A stretch of 64,000 nt of DNA, taken from the IMG/VR virus record IMGVR_UViG_3300024331_000007, positions 64,001 through 128,000 of that record, one strand, 5' to 3'. The notes beneath the pieces are model-generated. The model did no database searches. It saw only the letters and a program-made list of their open reading frames with translations, and was not told where the DNA came from. This stretch comes from a virus. Its lineage: Duplodnaviria; Caudoviricetes. A program made the position numbers and the translations under genes. This document shows positions 20,713 through 47,476 of the stretch, in pieces (position 1 is the stretch's first letter; every line of letters starts with the position of its first letter).

Positions 20713-20778
20713 GGCTGATACTCCACTTTAGTATTAGAGCGATTGGGCCTGCCAGCCGCGAACCGCATAAGTATTTAT
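20713..20778 (-). promoter_or_regulatory. Late promoter plus structured leader, copy 1
   Basis: ATAAATA CTTAT GCGGTT CGC GGCT GGCA GGCC C AATCGC TCTA ATACT AAAGTGG AGTAT CAGC C ATG. Confidence 0.75.
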
Positions 20779-20819
20779 CTCAAAATCCACAGGTTACGCT
20801 AAATATTACTGAGGTTTCT

Positions 20820-21134
20820 ATGAACAATGATGATCTAAAGAAGTTGCGAGACATTTGTACAGAAGGGGCTACGGACAATGGTTCTCATCAGTTTATTTTT
20901 GGCGATTCATTAGAAAAAGCAGCGCAGCATATTAGTAATCAGGCATATCAAGGGAAAACAAGAGAATCTTTTCTGAAAGGCGCAGAAAAATTACAAGGTA
21001 TCAAGACACTACTGATTTTTATGCGAGGAGAAAATGCCCCTCAGCATTTGTTTTTAACTGCATTGGTTGCATTGGGGAATGAAATAAACAGGCTGTATAC
21101 CGCAGCAGATTCGGTTTCTAATAAGGAAATATAA
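20820..21134 (+). CDS. Hypothetical late protein
   Basis: CTAAATA at about 20800 and GAGG SD. Confidence 0.65.
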   Translation: MNNDDLKKLRDICTEGATDNGSHQFIFGDSLEKAAQHISNQAYQGKTRESFLKGAEKLQGIKTLLIFMRGENAPQHLFLTALVALGNEINRLYTAADSVSNKEI

Positions 21135-21135
21135 A

Positions 21136-24100
21136 ATGATTGGCATGGACATGGGCCGCATACTTACGATTTTCAACAGCATGAAGAATGTTAACATGAG
21201 CGGCACCCCTGCGGCTGAAGAACCCGTCGAAGAAATCGAAACTAAGCCTTGTGCTGAATGCGTGAATTGCAGCGGTACGGGCCATCTCGATTTGGGATGG
21301 GGAGAAACTGTTCCCTGTTTGGAATGTCAAACAACGGGAAAGATTCTGGAATACAGTGATGGAGTTGATTCAGGTCCAATCGGTGACAGTGGAGCGGAAG
21401 ACGAAGGTCCAGCAGGTAAGTATGGCGCTGGAGAAATGTGGCAGAAAGATGAAATGGACTTTCCTCCTGAGAGTTTTTTCAAGACAAAAATTGCTGGCGA
21501 AAAGAAATCCGATCAGGATGTTAATGATCACGACTTAACTGTGGACGATCAACTTATACAGGATCATTTGGAAGAAGGCACCGATAAGTTGGATGAAGAA
21601 CGCGAAATGTGCCGCAGATGCGGAAATCCTACAACTGCACCGGGTATAGGGTTGTGTGACGATTGCTACAAAACTTCATATGAACATTCAATGGATAGAG
21701 TGAATCAAGTAACTCAAAAAAGACGCGCTGGAGATAGAGTTGTTGAGACAGCACCTCCAGATCAGGAAGATTGGGTTAAGAAAAACAAGTCTCGATTCAA
21801 GAAAGAATATGGCGACAAGAAGGGCGAAGAAGTTCTTTACGCTACGGCTTGGAAGAACCACAATAAGAAAAAGACCAACGAAGGTGAAAACACCGTGAAG
21901 AAGACAGTCGATGAATGTAATGGTTGTTCCGCTGGCGCTCCTGCCCAAGATCGTGATGCCGTTTCCGTCAATGCATCTTACAATAGTGACATGGACGAAA
22001 AGAGTGTTACTGTTACTGCTCGTAATGGTAGTGCTGATGAATTGATGCACATTCTCAAGCTGAGTGGCATTATGCCCGGTGAAGAGAAGACTGAGATTGC
22101 TCCTGAGCCACAGCCAGCCGCTGTTACTGGATTGTCGGCAGTAGTTGTTGGTGAAGGCAAAGAAGAAGTAGCAGCATCAATTGAAAACAAAAAGAAATAT
22201 GAACACAAATTTAAGCCGGGTAAGAGTGGCCGTATCTGCGTCCATGCTGGCTCCCATTCTCATTGTGGAAAGGTAGCAGATAATTATTTGCATGTTGGCT
22301 CACCTAAATGGAAAGCGGATAACGATAGACTACAGAGTAAATTGAACGAAGAGTTCCACCCAGACTTGCACGACAGTGACGCCGAAAGAGATTCGATGTT
22401 CTGCGACAGATGTTTTGGTTATCATGACGGTCCGTGCAAGGAAGAAACAAATTTCGAAGGATTGTGCGATCATTGTGGCGATAATGAAGCAATTGACGGC
22501 ACGAAATTCTGCCGTGATTGCCACGAATTAGGATTTGGTGAGGATTGGTATCAGGAACAGCTTGAAAAAGAAATGGCTGAACGCGATCCGTTTGCTATTC
22601 ACGAAGGACACATTTACGAATTGGATACACCTATTTGTTCCAATTGTGGATCGCCAAGAGAAGCAGGTATTCACAGCGGAGCAGATGAAGAAAAGCTCTG
22701 CGCTGATTGCTACAAGTATGCTCACATGGATGAATTGACCAATCCAGCCGACGAAGGTGCATACGATTTTGATAGAGACACAAATTGGGAACCAGATGAT
22801 TTCGAAGAAATGAATCGAAATGAAGCCAATGATTATACAAACGAATCAAAATTGAACGAAACTTCTGGTTATTATGTCACTGGATACACTCTAAAATCCA
22901 GTCAAGATAACAAATTTCGCCAGTGTTTTGTTAAATTAAATTTAGAAAGAGAACACTCTCTTAGCCCAAATTATATTCTTGTATTCGGTAAACAATTTGC
23001 AACTATTTTTGATGATTTAAACGAAGCAAAAAAAGCTGCTGCAAATGCTAAATCAATTTATAAATTACATAGCGTTTCAGTAAAGCCACAAATGGCAGAT
23101 ATTATTGAATTTCCTAAAAAAGTTCAAGAGAAGGTAACTAAAATGAATGAATCACTATCACCAAAAAGAGAAAACACTGGTTTGAACGGTGCTCCTAAGA
23201 CATGGCAGAATGAACCAAACGAACAGATGGCAGGTTGGAAGGCTCTCGTTCAGGATACCGAAGGATTGAGTCAGCCTCATGATATGTTCAATGCCGTGAA
23301 GGGTAGCGACAACATCATGACTGTTGCCTCAAAGAAGAGAGAAACAGAAAAGCCATCGGGTGATTTCGCCGCCAATGCTGTAATTGTTAGTGCAATTGCC
23401 GAAAAATTACAGAAGAAGTTCGATGTGCTGGAAGAATCAGATGATTCAGTTGAACGTATGACATGCTGCAAATGTGGCAAGAATACTTCGCGTTTCAATT
23501 GCAAGTGCGGTCACAAGATATGCTCAAGCTGCAAGGAAGCTCCAGCAAATAAGAAAAAGACTGTTAAGGAAGGTACACTAACAGAAGACCGTTGCATTTC
23601 GTGCGATGCCCGTATACCATCTGGCAGCGACATTGACCAGTGCAAGAAATGCTACAAAAAAGATCACCCAGAAGAAGGCAAGTCTAAAAAAAAGGTAACT
23701 GAAGCTAATTCCAGTAAAGCCGTAAACTGCTGTTCCTGCGGTAAAAACGGAATTGCCAAAAAATCCGAGAAATTTTCCAAATCTCATTGGACTAAGGCTC
23801 CAATGGAATGCAAGTCGTGTGGTCATAAGATTTGTACTCGCTGTAAAACACCTAAAAAGAAGGTAACTGAAGATGAATCTCTTTCGATTCGTTATTCAAA
23901 GAATCTTCCTGAGAAAAATACAGCACCATATACTCTATTGTTTACTGCAACTGATAAAAGCGGAGTAAAGAAAGGACATTTGGGTATTTGGGCTGACTCT
24001 GATCAGGAAGCTATTCAGAAAGGAATTGCAAAGATTGATCAGGAAAATAATTACGTCGGCAAAAAATATCAATTTGCTATTATTGGAATCGAAGACAATT

Positions 24101-25527
24101 TTGGTAGTCCTCGACGTAAACAAATTTATCCCGACAACAAGGTTGAGGAATCAACTGCTTCTAAAGTAGCCAAGCAGAAAGAAGACCATCCAGAAAAGTA
24201 TTGCAAGACAAAGAAGTGCCTCTATCGCACTGATGCTGACTATTGTCCAAAACATAAGCCAACAAAAAAGGTAAATGAATCTGGAAACTTCTCACAATAT
24301 TCAGATGAGTTCTATAATAAGGTTGCTGAACAAGAAAAACCAATGGAAGAGTTTTTGCGCAATGCTGGTTGGGAAAGCAAGGAAATTGTCGCACCTAACC
24401 AGAGAAAGCAATTGATGTGGTTACAACCCGGAAAGCCTTGGAGAGAATATAGTACTTTGAATGCTTATCATACCGCAAAAGGCATGACTGAATCTAAGAA
24501 TACTAAAGAACCAAAAAAGAAAAAGGTATGTTCTGATTGTGGTGGTTGCCCTCCAACTAAGGGTAGCAATTATTGCAAAAAATGCGCAGGTATGAACGAA
24601 TCCAAACTTGGCGATCTTTCTTGGCAGGGGAAGAATCCAAAAAAATTCTGGACCAAAATAACATACAATCTGGATAAGATACTATTCAAATTGTTTTGGG
24701 GTGAAACCTTTCCAAAGGATAGACCTCACTATGATACCAAGACAATTACAAAATATCTGAAGGACTATAACTTATCGGATGAGCAGATCAAGAACATTCG
24801 TCTCTGCGCCATTACAGCAATGAAATCTGCCATTAAGGATGCAGGTATCCCAGACGATAAAGTCTACAAGCTTCAGGATAGTTTTACAATTTACAATTTC
24901 ATCCCATCTTTCAATCGCGATGAAGAAAGACAGATGAGGGACGATATTGATACAGCCGCTCGACACAAATTTGAATTGCTTTTGAAGAAATATGGTCACG
25001 AATTAACGGAGTCTACAATGAAACCAATTGAAGTAACAGAAGAAGTATCCAAGTCGTCAGCAAAGAAGCTACAGGCAGCATTAGATAACCTTGAACAGAA
25101 GGTAAAGAAGTTGGGCGCACCTCCTTCTCCACAGACAAAGATCACGCAATCAATGGAACGCTTCACTGATAAGATTGCAGCTATCAAGGCAGCTTTGGCA
25201 AAGAGAAAAGGCGAAGACGAAGAGGAATCTTCTGAAGACGAAAAGCCAAAAGCCAAGAAGTCTGAAGGCGACGGCGAAAAGTCTGAAAAGAAACCTTTCG
25301 AAAAGAAGGAAAAGTCTGAGAAGTCTGAACCTGATGAAGAAGGCAAAGAAGCTGAGCCAAAGCCAAAGGAACAAAAAGAAACCGCCAGCAACAAGCCAAA
25401 TACAAACGGCGATGACAAGGCACCTGTTGGTAAGGTTAAGGATATTGGCAAAGGAATCTATGAGTCTGAAGTTGAAAAGATGCAGGGATTCCGCAGCATG
25501 CTTGTTGAAGGTTTTGAAAAAGAGTAA
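21136..25527 (+). CDS. 1463 aa modular zinc-finger-rich probable internal head polyprotein
   Basis: At least ten Cys clusters separated by recurring [LVMI]xE-[SGATD] sites; late region. Confidence 0.65.
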   Translation: MIGMDMGRILTIFNSMKNVNMSGTPAAEEPVEEIETKPCAECVNCSGTGHLDLGWGETVPCLECQTTGKILEYSDGVDSGPIGDSGAEDEGPAGKYGAGEMWQKDEMDFPPESFFKTKIAGEKKSDQDVNDHDLTVDDQLIQDHLEEGTDKLDEEREMCRRCGNPTTAPGIGLCDDCYKTSYEHSMDRVNQVTQKRRAGDRVVETAPPDQEDWVKKNKSRFKKEYGDKKGEEVLYATAWKNHNKKKTNEGENTVKKTVDECNGCSAGAPAQDRDAVSVNASYNSDMDEKSVTVTARNGSADELMHILKLSGIMPGEEKTEIAPEPQPAAVTGLSAVVVGEGKEEVAASIENKKKYEHKFKPGKSGRICVHAGSHSHCGKVADNYLHVGSPKWKADNDRLQSKLNEEFHPDLHDSDAERDSMFCDRCFGYHDGPCKEETNFEGLCDHCGDNEAIDGTKFCRDCHELGFGEDWYQEQLEKEMAERDPFAIHEGHIYELDTPICSNCGSPREAGIHSGADEEKLCADCYKYAHMDELTNPADEGAYDFDRDTNWEPDDFEEMNRNEANDYTNESKLNETSGYYVTGYTLKSSQDNKFRQCFVKLNLEREHSLSPNYILVFGKQFATIFDDLNEAKKAAANAKSIYKLHSVSVKPQMADIIEFPKKVQEKVTKMNESLSPKRENTGLNGAPKTWQNEPNEQMAGWKALVQDTEGLSQPHDMFNAVKGSDNIMTVASKKRETEKPSGDFAANAVIVSAIAEKLQKKFDVLEESDDSVERMTCCKCGKNTSRFNCKCGHKICSSCKEAPANKKKTVKEGTLTEDRCISCDARIPSGSDIDQCKKCYKKDHPEEGKSKKKVTEANSSKAVNCCSCGKNGIAKKSEKFSKSHWTKAPMECKSCGHKICTRCKTPKKKVTEDESLSIRYSKNLPEKNTAPYTLLFTATDKSGVKKGHLGIWADSDQEAIQKGIAKIDQENNYVGKKYQFAIIGIEDNFGSPRRKQIYPDNKVEESTASKVAKQKEDHPEKYCKTKKCLYRTDADYCPKHKPTKKVNESGNFSQYSDEFYNKVAEQEKPMEEFLRNAGWESKEIVAPNQRKQLMWLQPGKPWREYSTLNAYHTAKGMTESKNTKEPKKKKVCSDCGGCPPTKGSNYCKKCAGMNESKLGDLSWQGKNPKKFWTKITYNLDKILFKLFWGETFPKDRPHYDTKTITKYLKDYNLSDEQIKNIRLCAITAMKSAIKDAGIPDDKVYKLQDSFTIYNFIPSFNRDEERQMRDDIDTAARHKFELLLKKYGHELTESTMKPIEVTEEVSKSSAKKLQAALDNLEQKVKKLGAPPSPQTKITQSMERFTDKIAAIKAALAKRKGEDEEESSEDEKPKAKKSEGDGEKSEKKPFEKKEKSEKSEPDEEGKEAEPKPKEQKETASNKPNTNGDDKAPVGKVKDIGKGIYESEVEKMQGFRSMLVEGFEKE

Positions 25528-25539
25528 CGAGGGAACATC

Positions 25540-26205: not shown

Positions 26206-26215
26206 GGGAGATACA

Positions 26216-26599
26216 ATGCATAAGTCAAGCAGTGAAATTTTAAGAGAATATGCCAACATTATCGCTGAAGGTGATTTGGGCAATCCATATAATAATACCG
26301 CCGAAGATACAGAAGACTTCAACTATGGCGAAGAGGGCGGTCCTATGCGTGATGCTATCAATCAGAATGCCGATGACGAAGAAAATGGCGTTGATCTTCC
26401 AGATGAATCCTTGATGGAACCAGAATCTAAAGACGATTCTGAATTTCTGACATATGATCAAGTTCCAGAAAATGATCCTGTCATTAATCTATCCCGCGAT
26501 TTACAGGTTGATTCCGACAAGATCAGTAGATGGCTGAGCAAAAACAAATATGAATTAACTCCTGTTGGTGGTTTATCTAATAAGGAAGGAAATATCTAA
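26216..26599 (+). CDS. Acidic probable internal head protein
   Basis: N-terminal MHKSSSEILREYANIIAEG, homologous to 25540 start. Confidence 0.55.
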   Translation: MHKSSSEILREYANIIAEGDLGNPYNNTAEDTEDFNYGEEGGPMRDAINQNADDEENGVDLPDESLMEPESKDDSEFLTYDQVPENDPVINLSRDLQVDSDKISRWLSKNKYELTPVGGLSNKEGNI

Positions 26600-26600
26600 T

Positions 26601-26909: not shown

Positions 26910-27307
26910 TGAGAGAAATTTCAAAACTAAGACCTCGACGCTTTCCTGTTAATGAGGCAAAACAGGATATGATGGTCGCTGATAACGAAATAACTAATGG
27001 GTTAGATAGCGATCAGTCTGCTGCTTTACCAAATGCAAGATGGTATGATGGCGGGACGCCATATTTTCATTATAGAGCAATGGTTATGGCTGCAAGTTTG
27101 CCAAATCCACCTAAAATCGGCGTCTCGTCGTTCTCCCAAGATATGCCGTTTTCTTCTGGTTATACTCAAGCCGATGATGACATAATTTCAGCAGCAGCAA
27201 AACTGTGTGGCTATCCGGGTAAACGGCTAAGTAATTCAAGAAGTATGGAAAGTGATGAAATACATAAGGTTTCGCCTAATAATCACAATTCTGGTAAGCA
27301 TAAATAA
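26909..27307 (+). CDS. Hypothetical late protein
   Basis: 132 aa; stop codon overlaps the next late promoter. Confidence 0.65.
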   Translation: MREISKLRPRRFPVNEAKQDMMVADNEITNGLDSDQSAALPNARWYDGGTPYFHYRAMVMAASLPNPPKIGVSSFSQDMPFSSGYTQADDDIISAAAKLCGYPGKRLSNSRSMESDEIHKVSPNNHNSGKHK

Positions 27308-27361
27308 TATCGGTCGCGGATCACTAGTCCCACCGATTCTAATGCATACGGAGCATCAGCT
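27300..27361 (+). promoter_or_regulatory. Late promoter plus structured leader, copy 2
   Basis: ATAAATA AT ATCGGT CGC GGAT CACTA GTCC C ACCGAT TCTA ATGC ATACGGA GCAT CAGC T ATG. Confidence 0.75.
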
Positions 27362-28048
27362 ATGCCTATTTACTGCCAAGAATTTCTTGATCTAATCCAA
27401 TCTATTTCCTTTGATAACAAATATTTAAAATGGTATATAACTCTATGTGCCCAAGCGTCCTTGCGAGGATCAGATCGTTCTGTCATTAATCATAACATTG
27501 GATATGTCGAACAACATCACATTATTCCGAAATCTTTAAAAATTGTTAACGAAAAAGTTGATAAAAATTTAGTATACTTAACACCCAGAGAGCATTTTCT
27601 TTGTCATAGATTTTTAGCTAAGATGTTCAGTAATTCGTTATGGAAGAAGAAAATGAACGCTGCGGTTTTCATGATGTGTAATACTACTTACATGATTTCT
27701 AGTCGGCAATATGAATTTCTCAGATTCCAGCATTTCAAAACAAATATACCATCGATACATACTCGTAAGAAAATGGCAGCTAGTCTGAAAAACCTTATAT
27801 GGATTAAAAGAGAACAAACAAATGAATTTTTGCGAGTTTCATCGGAGAAAGCTCAGGAATTTTACAAACTAGGTTTTATTAAAGGCAGAAAACCTCGAAT
27901 CAATGCTCCAGTACATTCCATAGCAAATAGAAGAAAAATATCAATGTCCCATATACTACGAGTTAAAATTACTTGTGAATATTGTGGTTTGGTGTGTTCA
28001 AAACACATGCATACGAGATGGCATGGGAACAAATGTAAGGCTAAATAA
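27362..28048 (+). CDS. HNH homing endonuclease
   Basis: NKYLKWY...EQHHIIPKS...NLVYLTPREHFLCH; C-terminal CEYCG...RWHGNKCK. Confidence 0.85.
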   Translation: MPIYCQEFLDLIQSISFDNKYLKWYITLCAQASLRGSDRSVINHNIGYVEQHHIIPKSLKIVNEKVDKNLVYLTPREHFLCHRFLAKMFSNSLWKKKMNAAVFMMCNTTYMISSRQYEFLRFQHFKTNIPSIHTRKKMAASLKNLIWIKREQTNEFLRVSSEKAQEFYKLGFIKGRKPRINAPVHSIANRRKISMSHILRVKITCEYCGLVCSKHMHTRWHGNKCKAK

Positions 28049-28052
28049 CTAT

Positions 28053-29645
28053 ATGGGAAAAACGTTAGGCGAAACAGAACTAATTAAGCGTCCTCATAAA
28101 AAGACTGTTTACACAAAACAACAATTAGAAGAATTTCGTAAATGTGCAGACCCCGTAACTGGGCCATTTTACTTTTTAAGTAATTACTTCTATGTACAAC
28201 ATCCAAAACAGGGCAAGATGCTGTATAAGCCCTATTCCTATCAGATTCGTCTAATTGACGCTTATCACAACTTCAAAAGAATAGTGGCTATGATGCCCCG
28301 CCAGTGTGGGAAGACAGTTACCGCCGCTGGTTATCTTCTTTGGTCTTCCATGTTTAAAAGCGACCAAACTATTCTTATTGCTGCCCACAAGTTCTCAGGC
28401 GCATCAGAAATCATGAGCCGTATTAGATTTGGCTATGAAAATGTTCCTGATTTTATTCGTGCTGGTATCACAGAATACAATAAGCAAAGCATTGTATTTG
28501 ATAACGGGTCAAGAGTTATCGCACAAACCACAACAGAAACCACAGGTCGTGGTATGTCCATCTCCATCCTATATTCTGATGAGATGTCCTCAGTACGTCC
28601 AACGATTGCTCGTGAGTTCTGGACTTCCTGTTCTCTTACATTGAGCACAGGTGGTAAAGCAATTGTCACATCTACTCCAAACAATTCAGATGATCTTTTC
28701 GCAGACATCTGGCACAATGCCAACAAGACTGAGGATGAGTATGGAAATACTATTCCGAACGGACTTGGTTCTAATGGCTTTAAGGCCGTAACTGCAAAAT
28801 GGAGCGAACATCCCGAAAGAGATGATGCATGGGCAGATGAGCAGAGAGAATTGGTTGGAGATGAACGTTTCGCCAGAGAAATTCTGTGCGAGTTCATCAG
28901 CTTTGATGAAACTCTAATCAATCCATTCGTCCTGAATCAACTACAAGGAATTGATCCAATTGATAAGCAGGGGACTGTGCGCTGGTATGTTAAGCCCTCA
29001 AAGGGAAACATTTATCTGCTATCTCTTGATCCAAGTATCGGAACAGGCGGCGATCCCGCCGCAATTCAAGTATTTGAAGCCAAGAGCAATAGACAAGTTG
29101 CAGAATGGACTCATAACAAGACACCTATTGAAGCCCAAATAAAACTGCTCACCGATATTACCAAATATTTGGTTAGCGTCACTGAGAATAGTAGCAGTGT
29201 TTACTGGAGTATCGAAAACAATACCTTGGGCGAGGCTGCATTAGTTGAAATTCGACATGTTGGTGAAGAGAACATCCCCGGTATTTTCCTGAGCGAACCT
29301 ATAAAGATGGGTTCTGTTAGAAAATTTCGCAAGGGATTCAATACGACAAACTCCAACAAACTGAGTGCATGCGCCAAATTGAAGAATATGATTGAGCATA
29401 AGAAAATGCCAATCTACAGTCGAAAATTAATCAGCGAATTAAAGACCTTTGTCAGTGTTGAAAACACCTATCGCGCAAAGCCGGGTGAAACTGACGATTT
29501 GGTCACAGCCCTAATCACGTTGGTTCGTATGATGGAAGCTCTGAAGAACTACATCCCAGAATTGTCAGAAATTCGAGAGTTGAATGAGGATTCAAATATG
29601 CCTCTGCCGTTCAGCATGTCAACAAGCTCTAGCTCCTACTACTAA
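28053..29645 (+). CDS. terL: Terminase large subunit, T4 gp17-like (start revised to MGKTLG)
   Basis: PRQCGKT Walker A, GRG...ILYSDE Walker B, IVTSTPN, LSLDPSIG and DDLVTA nuclease motifs. Confidence 0.95.
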   Translation: MGKTLGETELIKRPHKKTVYTKQQLEEFRKCADPVTGPFYFLSNYFYVQHPKQGKMLYKPYSYQIRLIDAYHNFKRIVAMMPRQCGKTVTAAGYLLWSSMFKSDQTILIAAHKFSGASEIMSRIRFGYENVPDFIRAGITEYNKQSIVFDNGSRVIAQTTTETTGRGMSISILYSDEMSSVRPTIAREFWTSCSLTLSTGGKAIVTSTPNNSDDLFADIWHNANKTEDEYGNTIPNGLGSNGFKAVTAKWSEHPERDDAWADEQRELVGDERFAREILCEFISFDETLINPFVLNQLQGIDPIDKQGTVRWYVKPSKGNIYLLSLDPSIGTGGDPAAIQVFEAKSNRQVAEWTHNKTPIEAQIKLLTDITKYLVSVTENSSSVYWSIENNTLGEAALVEIRHVGEENIPGIFLSEPIKMGSVRKFRKGFNTTNSNKLSACAKLKNMIEHKKMPIYSRKLISELKTFVSVENTYRAKPGETDDLVTALITLVRMMEALKNYIPELSEIRELNEDSNMPLPFSMSTSSSSYY

Positions 29646-31358: not shown

Positions 31359-32015
31359 TCATTCTTTAGATAGATTTTGATAATATAGCCTGACAGCCTT
31401 GCTCAGCTTTCGTTTAGTTTCTTCAGTCTGAGCTATTCCTTTGTTCCAAGGAACTCTTCCTTTAGTAGCCTCGGAAATTTTAGTTTTAGTATCTGTTGAG
31501 TGAGATATGCCTAAATTCCAAGGAGTTGAACCTGTCTTTGAGGTAGAAATTTTTTGTTTTGTATTTTCTGACAGTATTCTACCAGCCAATGATTTTGCTA
31601 GTTTATTTCTAGTTTCGGCTGAAACCATCTTACCTTTATGAGTTTTGCTGATCTTTCTTCTACCCTGTTCTGTTATTGGTTTTCTATATTTCACCGACTC
31701 TTGTATTTTTCGTCTAGTTTCAATGGAGGGATTTTTTAGACCTTCACCGCCATCTGTTCTATTTTGCAAACAGCCAGTTCCCAAATCTACACGTCCGAAT
31801 TTTGCAATCTGTTTAATCTCCTCAGTTAGTGCGTCGTTTTCGTTTAAATTAGTAGACAGAAATACAATGTTGGACTTATCTGAAAGTGGAGATACTCTAT
31901 GTTGATTACTAAATGCTCTGTTGCCTTTTCCCTTGCCTATATAATATGGAGTTCCAATATTACCATTGTTGCTATTCTTAGTTCGTAGATAAGCGTATAC
32001 ATAGAAGTCAGTCAT
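31359..32015 (-). CDS. GIY-YIG homing endonuclease with NUMOD3 repeats (start revised to MTDFYV)
   Basis: YVYAYLR...PYYIGKG...LQNRTDGGEG; ATAAATA-5 nt-ATG. Confidence 0.9.
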   Translation of the reverse strand: MTDFYVYAYLRTKNSNNGNIGTPYYIGKGKGNRAFSNQHRVSPLSDKSNIVFLSTNLNENDALTEEIKQIAKFGRVDLGTGCLQNRTDGGEGLKNPSIETRRKIQESVKYRKPITEQGRRKISKTHKGKMVSAETRNKLAKSLAGRILSENTKQKISTSKTGSTPWNLGISHSTDTKTKISEATKGRVPWNKGIAQTEETKRKLSKAVRLYYQNLSKE

Positions 32016-32746: not shown

Positions 32747-32747
32747 A

Positions 32748-38139: not shown

Positions 38140-39153
38140 TTATGCCTTTGATTCAGCTTTTGCTTCTGCTGTTTTCTTACCGCGCTGCTTAATCATCTCA
38201 AGGATCGCGCTGGCAGACTTGTTCTCACCTGCTGGAGCAGCAACAGATTCCGTTTCAGCGTGAGAAGTTTCCTTCTTGCTTGCTTCGGTCTTTGTTTCTG
38301 TCTGAGTCGAATCGGTTGTACCTTCCTTCTCAGTTCTTGCTCCCGCTGGGCGATAGAAGCTACCCCAACGTTCCTGATCGTAAGCTTCACCATTGACTGA
38401 TGCTGCAAACATTTCACGAATGATGTTAAGTTCTTCTTCGGATGGCTTCTTGCCAAGGAAGTCGCTGAGATTGCTCAGACCGTGCTTCTCGATGGCAGCA
38501 AGTTCGTCCTGTGTAAGAGCAGATTCGCGGCGAGCATAAGAGCTAATACCGTAATCTGCATACTGGCCCTTTGTTGACTTTGTGATACGGAAGTCAGAAC
38601 CTGCCTCGTAATCGCAAGGAAGATTAATCATTTCTGCATCCATCAAACCAGCCTTGACCAAGTTATAAAGCTGCTTGTTCAAGCTGAAACGACGAATTGG
38701 ATTCTCAGGAACGGAATCTTCTTGGACTGCGCTCTTACGAACGAATCCCTGCATAATGTATTGTGGCTTCTTCCAGTAAATGTTGGCCTTTTGAGTAAGA
38801 GCCTCATCACCGCTTGCCTTGGCTTCCTTGTACCATGCGCGAACTTCACTGAGGATAGGGCATCCCTGTGGATATAGTTCACGACCAAACATTTCAACGC
38901 AAGGTACGCTGACTGTTACTTGTTTGGTTTCGCCGCCCTTGATACCGTTGAATGGCAGCTTGATCTGGAGTTTTTCAACCCAGAAAAATGTGTTGTCTTG
39001 ATTGCCGTCAGGAAGGAAACGGAGTTCAGAAGTTGTGTCGGGTTTCGCATTCCAGAATGGAAAAAATGCGTTGTCGAAGTTTTGACCTTTATTTTTTTCT
39101 GCTTGAGCTAATCTCGCACGAATGGCTTGAAGTGTGCTATTAGGGTTTCCCAT
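38140..39153 (-). CDS. Single-stranded DNA binding protein, gp32-like
   Basis: LRFLPDG...FFWVE...VPCVEM...CPIL...YWKK...DYGISSY. Confidence 0.85.
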   Translation of the reverse strand: MGNPNSTLQAIRARLAQAEKNKGQNFDNAFFPFWNAKPDTTSELRFLPDGNQDNTFFWVEKLQIKLPFNGIKGGETKQVTVSVPCVEMFGRELYPQGCPILSEVRAWYKEAKASGDEALTQKANIYWKKPQYIMQGFVRKSAVQEDSVPENPIRRFSLNKQLYNLVKAGLMDAEMINLPCDYEAGSDFRITKSTKGQYADYGISSYARRESALTQDELAAIEKHGLSNLSDFLGKKPSEEELNIIREMFAASVNGEAYDQERWGSFYRPAGARTEKEGTTDSTQTETKTEASKKETSHAETESVAAPAGENKSASAILEMIKQRGKKTAEAKAESKA

Positions 39154-39320
39154 GATGATTCTCCATATATACCATGTAATTTAATTAGTGTGACCATGAT
39201 TGTACTGCTTCCATGTTTGTCACTCTTTATCAAGAGTAACATTGTATTTAGTCTGAGTCAACGAGTTTTTTGGTTGAAAACGAAAAATAATTTTGTACTC
39301 GGTAAACGAAAACTTCAAAG

Positions 39321-39400
39321 CTAAATACTTGACGTAACAAATGCAGTCCACGAGTCGCCAAACTCTGACTGCCCTATCGGTCTGGGAGGACCAACAGCAC
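39321..39400 (+). promoter_or_regulatory. Late promoter plus structured leader, copy 4
   Basis: CTAAATA...GCAGTC CAC GAGT CGCCAA ACTC T GACTGC CCTA TC GGTC TGGGAG GACC AA CAGC AC ATG. Confidence 0.7.
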
Positions 39401-39721
39401 ATGCGTATTTACTTCTCTAATTTCCTAAACGCTGTTTCTGGAACAGCGTCGGCTGGCGTTCCTGTAGATATTGAAGGTTATTACTCAGAACTCATAAATG
39501 GTTGCAATACTAAATTCCAGCCGTTTCATCGTGCTATATTTTACTCAACCAACAACGGAAATGCCGCACCTGAATGCACGTTGGTTGTTCAATATTATGG
39601 TAGCGAAGATGATAAATTGCAATCCAAAAATTTGACTGGCAATGTCATTTTTAGTGGATCATCGTGCGAAGACATCCGTCAAAAATTTTTGAACCAAGCC
39701 TTAGAAAACCTTACAAAATGA
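39401..39721 (+). CDS. Hypothetical protein (start revised to MRIYFS)
   Basis: SD GGAGG in leader hairpin; ATGA overlap with next gene. Confidence 0.65.
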   Translation: MRIYFSNFLNAVSGTASAGVPVDIEGYYSELINGCNTKFQPFHRAIFYSTNNGNAAPECTLVVQYYGSEDDKLQSKNLTGNVIFSGSSCEDIRQKFLNQALENLTK

Positions 39722-40306
39722 ACATTTACTACATTTACGCATATCTTCGTAAAGTTCAAACACTACATGGAGAAGCTGGAACCCCCTTATTACATCGGCA
39801 AGGGGTGTGGTCCTAGAATGTATGTGAATCATTCGGATTGCGGCGGAAAAATACCCAAAGATCGTCGTTTCATTTTGAAGATTTTTGAGAACTGCTCTGA
39901 AAATCAAGCGTTTGAGCTAGAACGAGCGTTGATAAAGATATTCGGTAGGATCGACATTGGAACTGGGTGTCTTCGTAATCTTACGGATGGTGGAACTGGC
40001 TCTAGTGGTAAAATCATCACCGAGGAATCTCGTAAACGAATGTCAATTGGGCAGAGTAGGAGAACTGAATACCCAAAAGGTTTGCCAGTATCGGAAGAAA
40101 GAAGACAAGCTCAAAGAGAAAAGATGACTGGCAAACCAGCATGGAATAAAGGAAAATCTTGGTCTAAAGAGACTAGACAAAAGTTATCAGATTCCCATAT
40201 GGGTAAGACTAGCCCAAGAAAAGGTGTTACCTTATCTGTTGAAACCAAAAGAAAAATTTCAGAATCCCTTAAAAAGAGAAACCAAATTATCACCACTGCG
40301 ACATAG
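39718..40306 (+). pseudogene. GIY-YIG/NUMOD3 endonuclease split by a +1 frameshift
   Basis: MNIYYIYAYLRKVQTLHGEAGTP in frame 0; PYYIGKG...LRNLTDGG in +1 frame; junction ACCCCCTTAT at 39781. Confidence 0.8.
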
Positions 40307-42875: not shown

Positions 42876-42876
42876 T

Positions 42877-43617
42877 TTAGTTTTTCTCCAGTTTTTTAGA
42901 CTCGTAGAATTTCTTACGCGAATCCAATATTTTCTTTCTAACTTCGGCAGTCCATTTTTTCCCTATATGCGCCACAGCAATTTTGTTGCGTGCTTCTAAT
43001 GAATGTGTTTTACCATACATAGAATTTTTGGAACCAGTGGTGGCATTACTAATTTTTATTTTAAATTCTTCAGTTCGTGTTTTTCCAATTTGGGACTTTG
43101 ACATTTTGGCTTTAGATTCATCTGAAAAGATTCTACCTGTCATTAATTTTCGCATCTTATTTTTATGCTCAGTAGTATGTTTCTTTCCAGCATGACCGAA
43201 TGTTCCTTTTTGACCCATTCGTGACTCGGACATTCTTTTTCTGCTTTCTTTACTAAAAACCTGCTTGGTTCTTGCTTTTCGTATTTTTTCTTTAGTTTCT
43301 TCCGATAATTTGCCTTTTCCTTGCGCCTTAGATGATATGTTATAACCAAACGTTTTATTTGTTGTGTCAAACTTCGTGATATACAGTTCTTCAATCTCAT
43401 TCAATTTATCTGACGATTCAATATTAGTTTCAATTACTTCAAATACGAAAGCATTTACACCATGTTTGCGTATGGAATTATAAAGTGGAAAAGCCGATCC
43501 ATTACGAGCAAAATAGCAGTGTTTATTCCATCGTCTACTAGCGGGTTCTTGGATAGTTTGACCGATGTACTTCTTTCCATTGGTCAAATTCGTTATCTGG
43601 TAGATTGAGCCATTCAT
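42877..43617 (-). CDS. GIY-YIG homing endonuclease with NUMOD3 repeats (start revised to MNGSIY)
   Basis: GSIYQITNLTNGKKYIGQT...GYN; CTAAATA-5 nt-ATG. Confidence 0.9.
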   Translation of the reverse strand: MNGSIYQITNLTNGKKYIGQTIQEPASRRWNKHCYFARNGSAFPLYNSIRKHGVNAFVFEVIETNIESSDKLNEIEELYITKFDTTNKTFGYNISSKAQGKGKLSEETKEKIRKARTKQVFSKESRKRMSESRMGQKGTFGHAGKKHTTEHKNKMRKLMTGRIFSDESKAKMSKSQIGKTRTEEFKIKISNATTGSKNSMYGKTHSLEARNKIAVAHIGKKWTAEVRKKILDSRKKFYESKKLEKN

Positions 43618-43641
43618 AACAGTATTTAGTACAAAAAGACA

Positions 43642-43756
43642 ATGGACGGGTTTTTGGGCCAACCCGTCCATCTAAGACTATTTGATCTTACCAAGCTGTA
43701 TAATTCAGCGCCCTCATAAGATAATGGACGGAGTTTTAAACAATCTCTCCGTCCAT
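43642..43756. terminator. Two related hairpins ATGGACGG / CCGTCCAT
   Basis: 43642-43671 and 43724-43756; first is followed by TGTCTTTTT on the minus strand. Confidence 0.55.
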
Positions 43757-43822
43757 CCTGAAACAAATTGGTTTTGAAACCGAATAACATCTTCGGTAGT
43801 AAAGTACGCTTACTATTAAGTA

Positions 43823-44296
43823 TTATTTGTGTCCATTGTGACCGTCTTGATGACCACCACCGTGGAATCCGTTGTTTCCTCCGTGAAAACCTTCACCATG
43901 ACCCTGACTTCTGTGTTCGTCGCGGGGATGATTAAATCCTCGTGGTGCGGGAGCGTGATTCCAGATGTGAGAATGATCCCATCTGTCGCGATCACGCCAT
44001 CCATAATGTGAATGGCACCATCTATCATAACCGCGTCCGTGCCAGTGGTAACCATACCAAGGTCCAACTCCGATGAAAAATCCATCGATAAACCAGTCAG
44101 AACTATAGTATCCATATGGAACGCAGTCGTATGGATAATATGGATAATAACCCCATTGGCACACTGGCTCAACGTATACCGGTGTTTCAACAACTGGACC
44201 TACGCCTACCCCAACGCCAACGCTGACTTGTGCCTTGGCAACCGTTAGACCACCGAGCATAATCATCAACAATATTAGGTACTTTGCGTATTTCAT
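43823..44296 (-). CDS. Secreted Gly/His/Tyr-rich protein resembling an Acidobacteria family
   Basis: Signal peptide ending AKA-Q, then VSVGVGVG...CQWGYYPYYPYDCVPYGYY...WF...FIGVGPW. Confidence 0.55.
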   Translation of the reverse strand: MKYAKYLILLMIMLGGLTVAKAQVSVGVGVGVGPVVETPVYVEPVCQWGYYPYYPYDCVPYGYYSSDWFIDGFFIGVGPWYGYHWHGRGYDRWCHSHYGWRDRDRWDHSHIWNHAPAPRGFNHPRDEHRSQGHGEGFHGGNNGFHGGGHQDGHNGHK

Positions 44297-44308
44297 TATT
44301 TCCTCCGT

Positions 44309-44779
44309 TTATACAGCATGGCCTATAAGTGCTGGAGAAAGATGAACCATTTCTGGTGTAACCTTATAAACGAAATCTGGTTCAACATTCAGCAGGCTCA
44401 AACCACCTTTTAAGCAACATGCTGTTACAAATTCGCTGCAAATCCATTCATCACTATTATGCCATGATGTATGGGCGGCGATTCCCAAAATAGTCGAAAA
44501 ATCATATGATTTGCCAATTTGTGAGTGGGCAAATGTTAAAATTGCCTCTTCTGTGGCATCATCGACGGGGATAGCATATACCCTCTGTCTTTTAATCTTG
44601 CTTGGCTTAATGTAATCCACAGCACGTATTTTAATACCACCAACGGCGCGAGCACCCAAAAAAGTACCATCGGGAAGTACAAATTCAACATGTGACCAAA
44701 GACTTCCGCCTTGGAACCATGATACCGCACCTGAAATTACATCAGTTTCGGTTACAAATCTCAGTTTTATAACGCCCAT
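44309..44779 (-). CDS. Permuted papain-like (NlpC/P60, YiiX/YaeF-type) hydrolase
   Basis: WSHV...GKSYD...WICSEFV. Confidence 0.7.
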   Translation of the reverse strand: MGVIKLRFVTETDVISGAVSWFQGGSLWSHVEFVLPDGTFLGARAVGGIKIRAVDYIKPSKIKRQRVYAIPVDDATEEAILTFAHSQIGKSYDFSTILGIAAHTSWHNSDEWICSEFVTACCLKGGLSLLNVEPDFVYKVTPEMVHLSPALIGHAV

Positions 44780-44829
44780 AACTCTCTCCTAGTATAGACA
44801 CCATTTCAGTTGAAAAGGTGCGCTAATAT

Positions 44830-45036
44830 TTAGGAGTCGAGTAGTCTTTCAGCTAGACTTTTGGCATAATCGGCAAGGAATTTGTTGGAATATATTGACT
44901 TTTCATCAGTAGCTTTGTGTTTTTCTAAGTCCTTCAGGATATGTTCGATAGTTCCGGGTGTAACTTCGTCACGTATTAGTGTATATAAAAACGGTATAAG
45001 ATAATTGTCGGGCATTTGGTTTCCTTTTACGTCCAT
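44830..45036 (-). CDS. Small hypothetical protein
   Basis: ORF packed in minus-strand operon. Confidence 0.5.
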   Translation of the reverse strand: MDVKGNQMPDNYLIPFLYTLIRDEVTPGTIEHILKDLEKHKATDEKSIYSNKFLADYAKSLAERLLDS

Positions 45037-45893
45037 AGTTTGTGACGAACTTTGATGAGGCGAATCATCATTGATTCTTCCTCTTTTTCGTACTGTTTTT
45101 CAAGTTTGCTGAGGAGTTTATGGGCTTTATCGCCTTGTTTTTTCAATTCTTCTGAATAATTATCCCCATCAAGTACTGCCCACATAATCGTATGTTTGTC
45201 ATTCGTCTTTTCAGATGCGATTCGACGCTTTTCTTCGCAGTAATCATGAAATCCAGACACCTTCATTGGATCAGGGCGATTTGGATAAATGTCCTTCCAC
45301 CAAATATAGAGGGCGAGAACTTCCTTAGCTTTAATTGCTTGATCGGTTGGTGTTCCATACTTCGGATCGTTCTTGTCATAGCAACCATAATCTTCGTTGT
45401 GGACCAGAGCCATTTGCCATTTGAGATTTTCGATTCCAGCTTCGCGACTTCTCCAGTGCATGAATGGAAGTTTGTAACGGAATGGAACTTTGTAGTTTTC
45501 ATTATGCCAGAAAATTTCAGCGGCAAGTTCAATTTCAACGAAATCTACAAGAGTATCAAACATGCAATATAGGAAGCGATTGTCAACGTCTCTCCATTGT
45601 CCTCGTTTCAAATGTTCTTTGTGCGCGACAAGAGCATGAGTTTGCGATACAAATCGATTATCAAGGTAGCATCTGGCATCATGAAATTTGGTTGGAATAT
45701 AGCTCACAACTGCTTGAATACTATTCAATGCAGAATCAGCCAGCCAAAACCTGAATGGATGCGCGGCTTTAGCCTCAATGCGCCAGTTGGCCCATTCCGC
45801 ACCAGTGCCGCTGGCTGGTTTGTTAACTCCGCGAATCCAATTTGCAAATTTACTACTTGACCAATATCTTCCCATTTTCTTTCCTCTTGTCAC
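45027..45893 (-). CDS. Conserved-looking phage hypothetical protein
   Basis: 288 aa, Trp-rich. Confidence 0.65.
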   Translation of the reverse strand: MTRGKKMGRYWSSSKFANWIRGVNKPASGTGAEWANWRIEAKAAHPFRFWLADSALNSIQAVVSYIPTKFHDARCYLDNRFVSQTHALVAHKEHLKRGQWRDVDNRFLYCMFDTLVDFVEIELAAEIFWHNENYKVPFRYKLPFMHWRSREAGIENLKWQMALVHNEDYGCYDKNDPKYGTPTDQAIKAKEVLALYIWWKDIYPNRPDPMKVSGFHDYCEEKRRIASEKTNDKHTIMWAVLDGDNYSEELKKQGDKAHKLLSKLEKQYEKEEESMMIRLIKVRHKLWT

Positions 45894-46007
45894 GCCTATA
45901 ACAAATCAACATGATTTGAATAAAACAATACACTGCCCCGGCAATTATGAAGCCAGCAAAGCCAAAAGTCAGAGCCAGCAATATTGTTAAATCCCACAAG
46001 GTTGTGG

Positions 46008-47348
46008 TCATAGTTGTTCAGCTTCTTGCGTTTCCATATCAAGAACCCCAGCATCGTTCTTTTTGGTTTCGTCTTCAAGGAATTTGAAATTCTTGAGTTT
46101 GAAGGAATCACATTCGTCCAGACGATCAATACGTACCACAACACCCTCCGCTGGAACTTCTTTGTTGTTGAACGGACACATCTGATCGTAGACGTAACGA
46201 GTCTCCAGTTTGTTCATAAACTCATCCCGCCATCTCGCAAGGCCATCTTCGCCCCATGACGATACATTTGGTGCCCAACCTAAAAATAGAGAAACGGGTC
46301 CATAGAACAATTCATGCATCATTTGAAGCCCGTATTTATTGCAAAATTCTCTCACTTGTGGAACAGAAAGTTCAAGTGTTTTTCCGTCCACATTTGTAGT
46401 CTTAACACGATAAACGATAAACTTGTGTTCGCCCTTGGCACAACCATAATGATATGGGCGTCCACCAGATGCAGCTTGAATCGCTCCCCCGTCTGGTTTG
46501 TAACCAACAATCTCTCCATAGACAGTGTAGCTTGCTGGAATCTTGTCTTCAATCTCCTTCGCAACAACACCCCAAACATCTTCGCCAAACTTTCCTCCCA
46601 CGCTTTTAACAACCTTGCGTGAACTATACGCGAACTTGTATGTTGCCTCTTCGAGATGCGCTCCGCATTTCTTCATCAACTTTGAAATCCAGCACAGGTT
46701 TCTGTTGACAAGTAGCTTTCCGTAAATGGCAGAAGTTCCATGCCACTTATCGCTGATGCTTACATAGTCAGTTGGTTGAATTTTATGGATATTCTTACGA
46801 AGATTGTCAGTATCAAAATGAAATTTGAATTGTCCATCTACGATACTGTTCTTCAAAGAAAGCGCCTTGGAATTAACATTGCCACTAGAAGAACCACTCT
46901 TCCCAACAATATACTTTTGACAAATATCATGTCCGTCTATCTTATCAAAGGCATCTCCTACCTTCAGTGGAATGCTTCGTCCGTCATTGTGACCAAATAC
47001 ATATTCCAAGCTGCTCAAAGGAATCCAGAACCCCTCGCTCTTAACCCTGAGAAACTTTGCACACTTTATTCTGCGATGCGTTTCTAAATATCCAGTTTTT
47101 GATGAATCTATGTTACCCATTTCGGCACGACGATATAGATTGTTTGCAGACACAAACTCATGACTGAGTTGGGTTTCAACTGGAAAGAAAAGGCCGAGTT
47201 CTCCAGATTGAGCATCTTTATGGACAATTACGTTATTGCCAAAAATGATAGCAGACTTGATACGATCTGCTTTCGGAATCTGGACAAATTCTTTAAGTGA
47301 CACAATTGTAGCACAGTAATTTTTGTTTTTTGGTTCTTCAAGATTCAT
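46008..47348 (-). CDS. ATP-dependent RNA ligase (Rnl2 / DRB0094-like)
   Basis: DKWHGTS (motif I), YGEIVG (III), FIVY (IIIa), EGVVV (IV), KLKN (V). Confidence 0.85.
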   Translation of the reverse strand: MNLEEPKNKNYCATIVSLKEFVQIPKADRIKSAIIFGNNVIVHKDAQSGELGLFFPVETQLSHEFVSANNLYRRAEMGNIDSSKTGYLETHRRIKCAKFLRVKSEGFWIPLSSLEYVFGHNDGRSIPLKVGDAFDKIDGHDICQKYIVGKSGSSSGNVNSKALSLKNSIVDGQFKFHFDTDNLRKNIHKIQPTDYVSISDKWHGTSAIYGKLLVNRNLCWISKLMKKCGAHLEEATYKFAYSSRKVVKSVGGKFGEDVWGVVAKEIEDKIPASYTVYGEIVGYKPDGGAIQAASGGRPYHYGCAKGEHKFIVYRVKTTNVDGKTLELSVPQVREFCNKYGLQMMHELFYGPVSLFLGWAPNVSSWGEDGLARWRDEFMNKLETRYVYDQMCPFNNKEVPAEGVVVRIDRLDECDSFKLKNFKFLEDETKKNDAGVLDMETQEAEQL

Positions 47349-47404
47349 GCGACACCTTTTCTGTAATTGTAGCAAATTTCCGAATGATTTGCAATAGGTT
47401 TAGG

Positions 47405-47476
47405 ATAAATACAAATGCGATTCGCGGTGCTGAAACACCCAATCGCTCTATCAAGGTCTTGGAGGACCGACAGCAT
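47405..47476 (+). promoter_or_regulatory. Late promoter plus structured leader, copy 3
   Basis: ATAAATA CAAAT GCGATT CGC GGTG CTGAAA CACC C AATCGC TCTA TCAA GGTC TTGGAG GACC GA CAGC AT ATG. Confidence 0.75.

Follow-up and report, generated by a model that had tools for sequence, protein, structure and literature searches.

An approximately 85-base module, repeated far beyond chance, heads selfish nuclease genes in a 359,890-bp (~360-kb) phage genome and in uncultured T4-like phages of IMG/VR, and its conserved fold appears, judging from the pairing kept in alignments, to be under selection on the strand antisense to the nuclease gene. Such selection points to an antisense RNA encoded within the module and away from a simple mRNA leader. 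No selfish genes are commoner in large phages than homing endonucleases. How a phage copes with dozens of these is, to our knowledge, understood only for a few genes of T4 and Aeh1. If the antisense reading is true, the module represents a widespread additional class of phage regulatory RNA and offers a tidy test system, in which 85 bp contain two promoters and a pair of hairpins; if that RNA acts as a brake, it would be a new way of domesticating selfish nucleases.

A portable module at the head of homing endonuclease genes

The genome (IMG/VR record IMGVR_UViG_3300024331_000007; Duplodnaviria; Caudoviricetes) carries exactly 16 module copies according to a covariance model, R1, with scores of 54.6-99.7 bits (E = 6e-11 to 2e-23) and no weaker R1 match up to E = 1 across the whole genome. 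Four of them (54.6-81.9 bits) lie in the window, the 64,000-nucleotide stretch analysed here (record positions 64,001 to 128,000; Table 1). A preliminary description of the window had reported four copies of a structured 5' leader, and each was confirmed where it had been placed, together with its anatomy: all four sites carry TAAATA, the 6-bp stem P1 (GCGGTT/AATCGC, ATCGGT/ACCGAT, GCAGTC/GACTGC and GCGATT/AATCGC), a C-N-C element facing N' (three G:C pairs and one A:T), the 4-bp stem P2, YCTA, a hairpin around the SD, CAGC and ATG-NNT-ATT-TAY. The metagenome search that it had proposed yielded at least 200 distinct copies in two pattern scans of IMG/VR; all IMG/VR counts below rest on the matches listed. 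Its authors could not assign the element to Rfam, and indeed no Rfam 15 family matched the window at gathering thresholds, while six module copies compared with Rfam gave a sole match, sR55, at chance level (E = 4).

At most copies the downstream gene has NUMOD3 and GIY-YIG-type N-termini; HNH-type PHROG matches occur behind two copies and DUF723/DUF4379 behind one. GIY-YIG, HNH, treble-clef zinc-finger and unassigned ORFs are all headed by this one module, with the junction right after TATTTAY, which implies module swapping. The earlier claim that endonucleases of different families carry the element thus holds generally and needs correction at two copies: copy 3 is followed first by a 106-aa ORF of no assigned family and then by a frameshifted GIY-YIG gene, and the protein behind copy 4, which no Pfam, PHROG or NCBIfam model matched, is SegE-like as a lead from its ESM-Atlas neighbours only. 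A portable control unit of free-standing homing endonuclease genes is the best explanation for so compact a module, common to unrelated nuclease families, absent from Rfam and present in 16 copies here and at least 200 in IMG/VR.

Table 1. Module copies in the window, their parts and adjoining genes (positions in the window)
Feature	Position	Strand	Remarks
Module copy 1	20701..20778	-	R1 74.1 bits
Forward box	20778-20772	-	
Hairpin B	20766-20739	-	
Hairpin A	20737-20715	-	
ATG	20712	-	
Mirrored box	20707-20701	-	TATTTAT
Predicted antisense RNA, copy 1	20713..20778	+	start set at 6th nt after mirrored box; 3' end not defined
Homing endonuclease, 228 aa	20026..20712	-	GIY-YIG-type with NUMOD3 motif
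Module copy 2	27300..27373	+	R1 54.6 bits
Forward box	27300-27306	+	overlaps stop codon of upstream ORF
Hairpin B	27309-27337	+	
Hairpin A	27339-27359	+	
ATG	27362	+	
Mirrored box	27367-27373	+	
Predicted antisense RNA, copy 2	27300..27361	-	
Homing endonuclease, 228 aa	27362..28048	+	HNH-type, phrog_655; directly 5' of, and overlapping, terminase large subunit
Module copy 3	39321..39412	+	R1 70.7 bits
Forward box	39321-39327	+	CTAAATA; 15 nt from P1, decayed box remnant in gap
Hairpin B	39343-39372	+	CAC/T variant
Hairpin A	39374-39397	+	
ATG	39401	+	
Mirrored box	39406-39412	+	
Predicted antisense RNA, copy 3	39321..39400	-	
gp32-like SSB gene	38140-39153	-	copy 3 antisense direction is towards it
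ORF, 106 aa	39401..39721	+	starts with the module's M-R-I-Y codons
GIY-YIG endonuclease gene, frameshift-broken	39718..40306	+	N-terminal 32 codons in one frame, remainder in another
Module copy 4	47405..47488	+	R1 81.9 bits
Forward box	47405-47411	+	
Hairpin B	47417-47446	+	
Hairpin A	47448-47473	+	
ATG	47477	+	
Mirrored box	47482-47488	+	
Predicted antisense RNA, copy 4	47405..47476	-	
RNA ligase gene	46008-47348	-	copy 4 antisense direction is towards it
Protein, 202 aa	47477..48085	+	SegE/GIY-YIG-like (lead)

Two facing late boxes enclose two hairpins

The module is mirror-symmetric in its order: (A/C)TAAATA, about 5 nt, a bulged hairpin made of P1 and P2 (hairpin B), an 8-bp hairpin holding the SD (hairpin A), 4-7 nt and TATTTAY. 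Hairpin A is built from the CTA of YCTA, the SD stem and CAGC; it had been taken for a shorter helix between a YCTA linker and a CAGC spacer, which is wrong, as these two pair together and lengthen it to 8 bp. The bulge nucleotides of hairpin B (C-N-C/C on the mRNA, G-N-G/G on the antisense strand) are invariant, and the flanking stems vary freely. As had been noticed, TATTTA is the reverse complement of TAAATA, and TATTTAY is the late box (A/C)TAAATA read on the opposite strand, giving two facing boxes about 75 bp apart.

The reported junction of the element with a T4-type late box proved general: (A/C)TAAATA stands 2-15 nt ahead of P1 in 16/16 copies of this genome, and TAAATA was found in 112 of 113 IMG/VR copies among the matches listed, a sample picked independently of either box, with exactly 5 nt between box and P1 in 96 of the 113. 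TATTTA had been described as a conserved feature of codons 2-4. What is kept, however, is its distance to CAGC, which is 4-6 nt in 95 of the 97 IMG/VR copies having both (5 nt in 77; matches listed) and mirrors the 5-nt spacing of the forward box, whereas its offset from the start codon is 5, 3 or 4 among the matches listed and so covers all three reading frames. This combination shows that the signal lies in the nucleotides themselves and not in the codons. The corresponding gap, between mirrored box and GCUG, is looser in this genome (5-8 nt) than in IMG/VR, and one copy, g324621, keeps the box as CTAAATA despite different codons.

The late machinery is represented by a distant homologue of T4 gp55 encoded in the phage genome, and ATAAATA is enriched 3-4 fold in its intergenic DNA. 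In eleven ORFs of the genome ATAAATA is followed after exactly 5 nt by ATG, which calibrates the start site; T(-1)/G(+1) is present on both sides of the module.

Pairing is kept on the strand opposite the nuclease gene

Read on the mRNA strand, the element is conserved and covarying, as first proposed: 94.1% of alignment cells are paired, against 68.8% in shuffles (0/500), both sides change in 15 of 16 pairs, and slid controls pair at 24-43%. In sense-fitted alignments the cells that deviate from Watson-Crick pairing are A·C in 109 instances and G·U in 9. Among the IMG/VR matches listed, P1, N:N' and P2 on the mRNA strand (leaving out the loop-closing pair) contain 37 A·C and 0 G·U, and pair 3 of the extended SD hairpin is A·C in 16/16 copies of this genome and 104/104 listed IMG/VR copies (120/120). 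Pairs 1-8 of the SD hairpin hold 27 A·C and no G·U in this genome; hairpin B there has 2 A·C and 5 G·U, four of the latter at the loop-closing pair, and its wobbles are neutral evidence.

An A·C on the mRNA strand is a G·U on the opposite strand, where paired cells make up 98.3% of 301 in this genome (77.3% in shuffles; 0/500) and 99.3% of 1962 in 104 listed IMG/VR copies (78.1% in shuffles; 0/500), and 15-16 of 19 pairs show compensatory change on both sides. The antisense fold exceeds the sense fold in stability by about 5 kcal/mol in 14/15 copies of this genome and 98/102 listed IMG/VR copies, a gap located in the SD hairpin (sense -3.6, antisense -7.1 kcal/mol). If the antisense reading is true, a G·U/A·C pair giving stability to a helix in only one of the two transcripts would be a neat design principle.

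Strand asymmetry alone is no proof of RNA, because hairpins of single-stranded DNA tolerate G·T wobble too. The module could then be a one-strand DNA hairpin or a promoter/nuclease-ORF recombination cassette akin to the PeSL cassettes known from T4-type phages, with selection acting on something other than RNA structure, and its swapping among ORF families would suit this. We consider it improbable: recombination conserves sequence and not compensatory pairing of the extent found, and the 5-nt spacing from box to hairpin base, equal at either side, indicates RNA 5' ends. Invariant bulges beside varying stems, and a GGA in or beside the loop of the SD hairpin, the arrangement of CsrA-like sites, could instead indicate a shared operator, bound at bulges and loop by a phage or host RNA-binding protein that sets all nuclease genes jointly. 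Such an operator seems very improbable, since antisense RNAs typically have bulged stems too, no protein presents itself as a candidate, and an operator would account neither for the mirrored box nor for the asymmetry between the strands.

A predicted antisense RNA over the SD

The reading we prefer, at somewhat less than an even chance, is that two facing late promoters produce the nuclease mRNA and, as a brake on it, an antisense RNA of about 65-75 nt with two hairpins that covers the SD. From the forward box, transcription of the nuclease gene would begin at the base of hairpin B, and the mirrored box, in the first codons of the gene, would start the antisense RNA at or beside GCUG, the complement of the invariant CAGC. 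We infer that this RNA would form an 8-9-bp 5' hairpin with an anti-SD in its loop, then the bulged P1/P2 hairpin, and would continue into a U-rich stretch complementary to the forward box. Its complementarity to the mRNA, complete from its own 5' end to just before the AUG, would block the SD or cause the duplex to be degraded, and nuclease output would so be kept low. By extension, and tentatively, in many uncultured phages, T4-like and jumbo, the free-standing homing endonucleases may carry a brake resembling a type I antitoxin, a two-hairpin antisense RNA of ~70 nt driven by a late promoter in codons 2-4, which would constitute a large uncatalogued sRNA family.

As for the 3' end of the predicted RNA, hairpin B is followed on the antisense strand by the U-rich stretch complementary to the forward box; this hairpin reaches only about -9 kcal/mol, the tail is only moderately U-rich in this genome, and a simple terminator scan called nothing at two copies. 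In at least four copies of this genome the start codon of a divergent neighbour lies 17-19 nt past the forward box, so that the antisense transcript cannot stop efficiently there and may be the neighbour's mRNA leader.

Neighbouring genes and the direction of transcription

The upstream gene is divergent at 13 of the 16 copies in this genome (3/4 in the window) and at 120 of 183 IMG/VR copies among the matches listed, which makes read-through hairpin control of the T4 type unlikely. The preliminary description had proposed such control, with AUAAAUA and UAUUUAU pairing in read-through RNA to bury the start codon and late RNA, devoid of the 5' arm, being translated, as in T4 e, soc and I-TevI. 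The boxes are complementary over 6-7 nt, and since both are invariant, covariation does not speak against a TAAATA:TATTTA helix; minimum-free-energy folds of extended RNA often close this helix, the T4 precedent is well documented, and TATAAATA hairpins upstream of metagenomic endonuclease genes were interpreted in this way (Dassa et al. 2009). We nevertheless do not favour it and think it quite improbable. A co-oriented upstream gene is missing at most copies, with equal conservation of the box; the helix consists of A-U pairs only; the sense SD hairpin is weak (-2 to -4 kcal/mol), with the wobble pairs sitting on the opposite strand; and both covarying hairpins lie 3' of the late start and would form in early and late RNA alike.

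Prevalent divergence also fits an outward promoter and leader for the flanking host gene, with the mirrored box and antisense hairpins serving the divergent upstream gene. Late transcription would thereby be restored, the hairpins being a protective 5' structure or a processing site, and the fold would belong to the 5' UTR of the host gene or to an intercistronic RNA and would not regulate the nuclease. At the four copies with close neighbours, whose SD and ATG come 17-19 nt after the module, there is no space for a promoter of their own, and 59 of 81 divergent gaps among the IMG/VR matches listed are without an own late box. The downstream neighbour is convergent in 87 of 133 copies among the matches listed, so many nucleases lie backwards inside a host transcription unit. 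Copy 3 adjoins a gp32-like gene, recalling segG, near which RNase E processing stabilises gene 32 mRNA; invading endonucleases may also bring promoters that affect neighbouring genes (both from the review by Edgell et al.). A module serving its neighbour would show a selfish element paying for its insertion.

We regard this as unlikely, though to be taken seriously. The mirrored box is kept with co-oriented upstream genes (35/38) as it is with divergent ones (48/58), the antisense fold equally so, and in the co-oriented cases the transcript is only antisense to the 3' end of the upstream gene. Some divergent neighbours do have their own late boxes. The neighbours of copies 3 and 4 (SSB, RNA ligase) are of the replication/repair type, which in T4 is usually early or middle, and are not obvious clients of a late promoter. 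The strongest strand-specific selection, that on the anti-SD hairpin, would moreover be left unexplained.

Relation to known systems

Late-promoter hairpins that sequester the RBS are known for T-even I-TevI, I-TevII, I-TevIII and segB and for Aeh1 mobE (PMC2988022). The module shares with them a TATAAATA-type late box directly 5' of a homing endonuclease gene, RNA structure around the SD and, presumably, the aim of low, late-only nuclease expression. Theirs, however, requires sequence 5' of the late start, present in read-through RNA only, while both hairpins of the module lie 3' of the start; the module also has pairing selected on the opposite strand, a second, facing late box and mostly counter-oriented neighbours. 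We rejected an RBS hairpin of the I-TevI class, as the sole upstream-dependent helix is 6-7 A-U pairs and the SD hairpin (-3.6 kcal/mol) contains the invariant A·C; co-directional embedding in an early or middle unit was rejected on the divergence of upstream genes counted above.

Conserved 5' hairpins with TATAAATA precede free-standing endonucleases among the 'fractured genes' of the GOS metagenome (Dassa et al. 2009; PMC2677866); ten of them include the late box, two conserved motifs pair in the stem, and they were interpreted as sense-strand translational attenuators. A mirrored box, antisense selection and a covariance model were not found in that paper. These loci, too, are metagenomic and phage-like, with GIY-YIG and other endonucleases behind the hairpin, and, compared by description, the hairpins may well belong to the same family as the module.

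In the T4-like cyanophage S-PM2, a homing endonuclease gene has an antisense RNA, CfrI, to which we know of no relation of the module fold. CfrI, as outlined in PMC2984593 after Millard et al. 2010, is ~225 nt long and spans the endonuclease gene and psbA, whereas the module is a compact unit at the gene head.

The predicted arrangement also resembles RNA-IN/RNA-OUT of IS10/Tn10 (PMC5006887 and work cited therein), where the gene of a selfish element is kept in check by a structured antisense RNA of ~70 nt, whose promoter opposes that of the mRNA and which is complementary to the translation initiation region. That system, proven experimentally, works with sigma-70 promoters and a single stem-loop, and its 35-nt overlap takes in the AUG; the module, predicted from sequence, would use T4-type late boxes, two hairpins and an overlap of ~60-65 nt ending just before the AUG. 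Like RNA-OUT it has a conserved, stable antisense fold (98.3% and 99.3% of cells paired). Its mirrored late box, with matching spacing and independent of reading frame, may act as a facing promoter.

A widespread structured module precedes nuclease genes

The element of about 85 bases that heads nuclease genes in this phage is a widespread, uncatalogued regulatory module. Its four sites in the window (copies 1-4, copy 1 on the (-) strand) have the anatomy reported in the preliminary description, apart from the points taken up below. When the complete 359,890-bp genome was scanned with a structural pattern (the window being bases 64,001-128,000 of the IMG/VR record), further copies outside the window came to light, and a covariance model of the mRNA-sense strand built from eight copies (R1) retrieved exactly 16 (hereafter own copies) at 54.6-99.7 bits, with none weaker up to E = 1. 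The maintenance of pairing seen in the window stems was borne out: in the mRNA-sense reading 94.1% of cells were paired, as compared with 68.8% in shuffles (0/500) and 24-43% in slid controls, and changes on both sides occurred in 15/16 pairs. No Rfam family was matched in a gathering scan of the window or a permissive scan of six copies. The copies found by R1, their covariation and the lack of an Rfam match therefore indicate that the repeat is real and structured and is no chance pattern.

Two pattern scans of IMG/VR, each hitting at least 120 contigs, together yielded at least 208 distinct copies in which the architecture is complete; the contigs bearing them range from a few kb to 360 kb. 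The first scan required both of the promoter-like boxes described below, and the second required one common sequence of stem P1 and neither box. Among 50,697 phage records, there was no match to the window (megablast) or to a typical leader (blastn). R1 detected no copy in five cultured phages carrying homologous GIY-YIG genes (S-SRM01, Motura, RSP15, S-N03 and ACG-2014f), and thus no cultured host of the module was found. When three large module-bearing IMG/VR records were searched at the DNA level for close relatives of the window, only a single short 64% match emerged. The sequencing runs found for the window were two soil-metagenome DNA runs and no RNA run; for one recurrent IMG/VR locus, none was found.

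The module is mirror-symmetric: a late-promoter box, (A/C)TAAATA (forward box), is followed after ~5 nt by hairpin B, 1 nt, hairpin A, 4-7 nt and the same box on the other strand (mirrored box, TATTTAY, early in the nuclease gene). Hairpin B consists of P1, two single-base bulges flanking one pair, and P2. Hairpin A contains the Shine-Dalgarno (SD) sequence, and its extent needs revision: the CTA previously described as a linker pairs with the invariant CAG(C) when both strands are folded, so that this hairpin measures 8-9 bp rather than 4-5. At the third pair of hairpin A the mRNA strand has A·C, and the opposite strand hence G·U, in 16/16 own copies and in 104/104 copies among the IMG/VR matches listed. 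By eye, CAGC and the P2 loop showed no consistent complementarity that would indicate a pseudoknot. In copy 3 the usual box beside P1 has decayed into what looks like the remnant of a 3-nt deletion, and CTAAATA occurs afresh at a distance of 15 nt on the upstream side of P1 (see table).

The mirrored box is a nucleotide signal resembling a late promoter

Box spacing was measured in 113 copies among the IMG/VR matches listed, picked independently of both boxes. The forward TAAATA was 5 nt from P1 in 96 of these, and TATTTA occurred 4-6 nt past CAGC in 95 of the 97 copies having both (5 nt in 77). Relative to the start codon, TATTTA was offset by 5, 3 or 4 nt and thus appeared in all three frames; own copy g324621 has the same frame-independent placement. 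The fixed spacing to CAGC, together with the use of all three frames, therefore establishes TATTTAY as a nucleotide signal whose position is set with respect to the hairpin, and not as a peptide. A conserved M-x-I-Y peptide or GIY motif was rejected as the main cause of the conservation, since the box is retained as a nucleotide sequence in other frames too.

The mirrored box shares both its spacing and T(-1)/G(+1) with the forward promoter. Across the phage genome, ATAAATA is enriched in intergenic DNA, and many genes have it 20-36 nt upstream. In eleven ORFs genome-wide it lies exactly 5 nt before the ATG, a sharp peak, neighbouring spacings accounting for 1-2 cases each, and from this the start was calibrated as the sixth base past the box; these ORFs are candidates for leaderless late mRNAs. 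At least two of the eleven are GIY-YIG paralogues without the module. The T4 late sigma factor gp55 has a distant homologue in the genome, with 84 residues aligned at 27% identity (E 4e-6). In T4, TATAAATA is the sequence recognised by the late transcription machinery. A variant box, ATAAGTA (TACTTAT on the mRNA strand), recurs at the mirrored position in IMG/VR loci including L149, L165, L205, L221 and L086 and in own copy g254703; a single occurrence at the forward position as well suggests that it is a weaker form of the promoter that is tolerated.

Pairing appears to be selected on the antisense strand

In sense-model alignments of 107 copies among the IMG/VR matches listed, cells departing from Watson-Crick pairing comprised 109 A·C and 9 G·U; in P1, the bulge-flanked pair and P2, without the loop-closing pair, there were 37 A·C and 0 G·U among the matches listed. 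A model of the antisense strand (R2) had 98.3% of 301 cells paired in the phage genome, 27 of them G·U, and 99.3% of 1962 cells in 104 copies among the IMG/VR matches listed. R2 pairing surpassed all 500 shuffles in both sets, slid versions being 30-56% paired. Strand-symmetric mutation cannot yield such ratios, and it therefore appears that selection acts on pairing of the strand opposite to the nuclease gene. The sense strand, to which the fold had been assigned, is probably the wrong one, since both the A·C/G·U ratios and R2 pairing favour the antisense strand.

The antisense strand had the lower minimum free energy, by ~5 kcal/mol, in 14/15 own copies and in 98/102 IMG/VR copies among the matches listed. 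This gap resides almost wholly in hairpin A (-3.6 kcal/mol on the mRNA strand vs -7.1 on the antisense strand in the phage genome), hairpin B being equal on both strands. Within the phage genome hairpin A alone carries the asymmetry; hairpin B there has 2 A·C and 5 G·U, four of the latter at the loop-closing pair.

Two facing late promoters as a model

The best-supported reading is that two facing late promoters produce the nuclease mRNA and a predicted antisense RNA. The forward promoter would yield an mRNA with hairpin B as its 5' end, and the mirrored promoter an antisense RNA predicted to begin at or beside GCUG, to form hairpins A and B, the anti-SD lying in the loop of A, and to be complementary to the entire mRNA leader as far as the AUG. 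In the manner of IS10 RNA-OUT, it may block ribosome binding or provoke decay of the duplex. The invariant G·U/A·C pair would leave the SD helix stable on the antisense RNA and weak on the mRNA. A simple terminator scan at two copies called no terminator.

The main alternative is that the outward promoter and the hairpins serve a divergent neighbour gene. An upstream neighbour is divergent at 13/16 own copies and at 120/183 IMG/VR copies among the matches listed; in four own copies its SD and ATG lie 17-19 nt past the module, and most divergent gaps among the IMG/VR matches listed lack a late box of their own. However, co-oriented (35/38) and divergent (48/58) settings among the matches listed retain the mirrored box equally well; such conservation, independent of context, speaks against service to the neighbour as a full explanation. 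Spacer A-richness does not differ between the two settings (2.23 vs 2.14). A brake on the nuclease by antisense RNA and service to the neighbour could coexist if termination after hairpin B is partial.

In T-even phages, nuclease genes have a late promoter embedded in a hairpin that sequesters the ribosome-binding site and forms on read-through RNA only (PMC2988022). The preliminary description had proposed such a mechanism, with TAAATA pairing to TATTTA in read-through RNA and hiding the start codon; this is probably wrong, as the module lacks two defining features of the T-even scheme. Dassa et al. 2009 (PMC2677866) reported that metagenomic endonuclease genes are preceded by hairpins containing TATAAATA and two self-complementary motifs, and took these for T-even-type attenuators. 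Compared by description, the hairpins probably belong to the same family as the module, seen, probably, before its symmetry and strand bias were recognisable. As described in PMC2984593, CfrI of cyanophage S-PM2 is an antisense RNA opposite a homing endonuclease gene, and a different kind of transcript from the one predicted here.

Genes headed by the module and their surroundings

Eleven downstream ORFs encode GIY-YIG-type proteins of the YVY...YIGKG kind and a twelfth a classical GIY-YIG protein, NUMOD3 occurring in most of the twelve; two are HNH-type and one has a DUF723/DUF4379 treble-clef finger. The copy 4 protein is SegE/GIY-YIG-like solely through its ESM-Atlas neighbours, and the 106-aa ORF headed by copy 3 belongs to no known family; the gene after it is of GIY-YIG type and carries a frameshift. 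The module is absent from at least eight other nuclease-like genes of this phage.

The downstream neighbour is convergent at 87/133 IMG/VR copies among the matches listed; with the divergent upstream neighbours, this places many of the nucleases backwards among their neighbours. Copy 3 is flanked by a virion protein gene and a gp32-like SSB gene, and copy 4 by polynucleotide kinase and RNA ligase. Copy 2 is co-oriented, directly ahead of the terminase large subunit, and its overlap with the preceding stop codon (see table) indicates insertion of the module flush against the gene before it. The PHROG match of the terminase ORF begins well inside the profile, and its start may therefore be interrupted or shortened.

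Positions of individual features in the window or genome
Feature	Sequence	Position	Strand
ORF with ATAAATA 5 nt before ATG	window	8517-9665	-
ORF with ATAAATA 5 nt before ATG; GIY-YIG paralogue without module	window	31359-32015	-
ORF with ATAAATA 5 nt before ATG; GIY-YIG paralogue without module	genome	290135-290743	
gp55 homology within a 314-aa ORF, outside window	genome	283830-284075	-
Copy 2 forward box overlapping stop codon of upstream 132-aa ORF	window	27300-27307	+
Copy 2 HNH endonuclease overlapping 5' part of terminase large subunit ORF	window	27362-29645	+
Copy 3 box beside P1, decayed to GTAACA	window	39328-39342	+
GIY-YIG endonuclease gene split by frameshift near GTPYYIGKG, overlapping the preceding module-headed 106-aa ORF by ATGA	window	39718-40306	+
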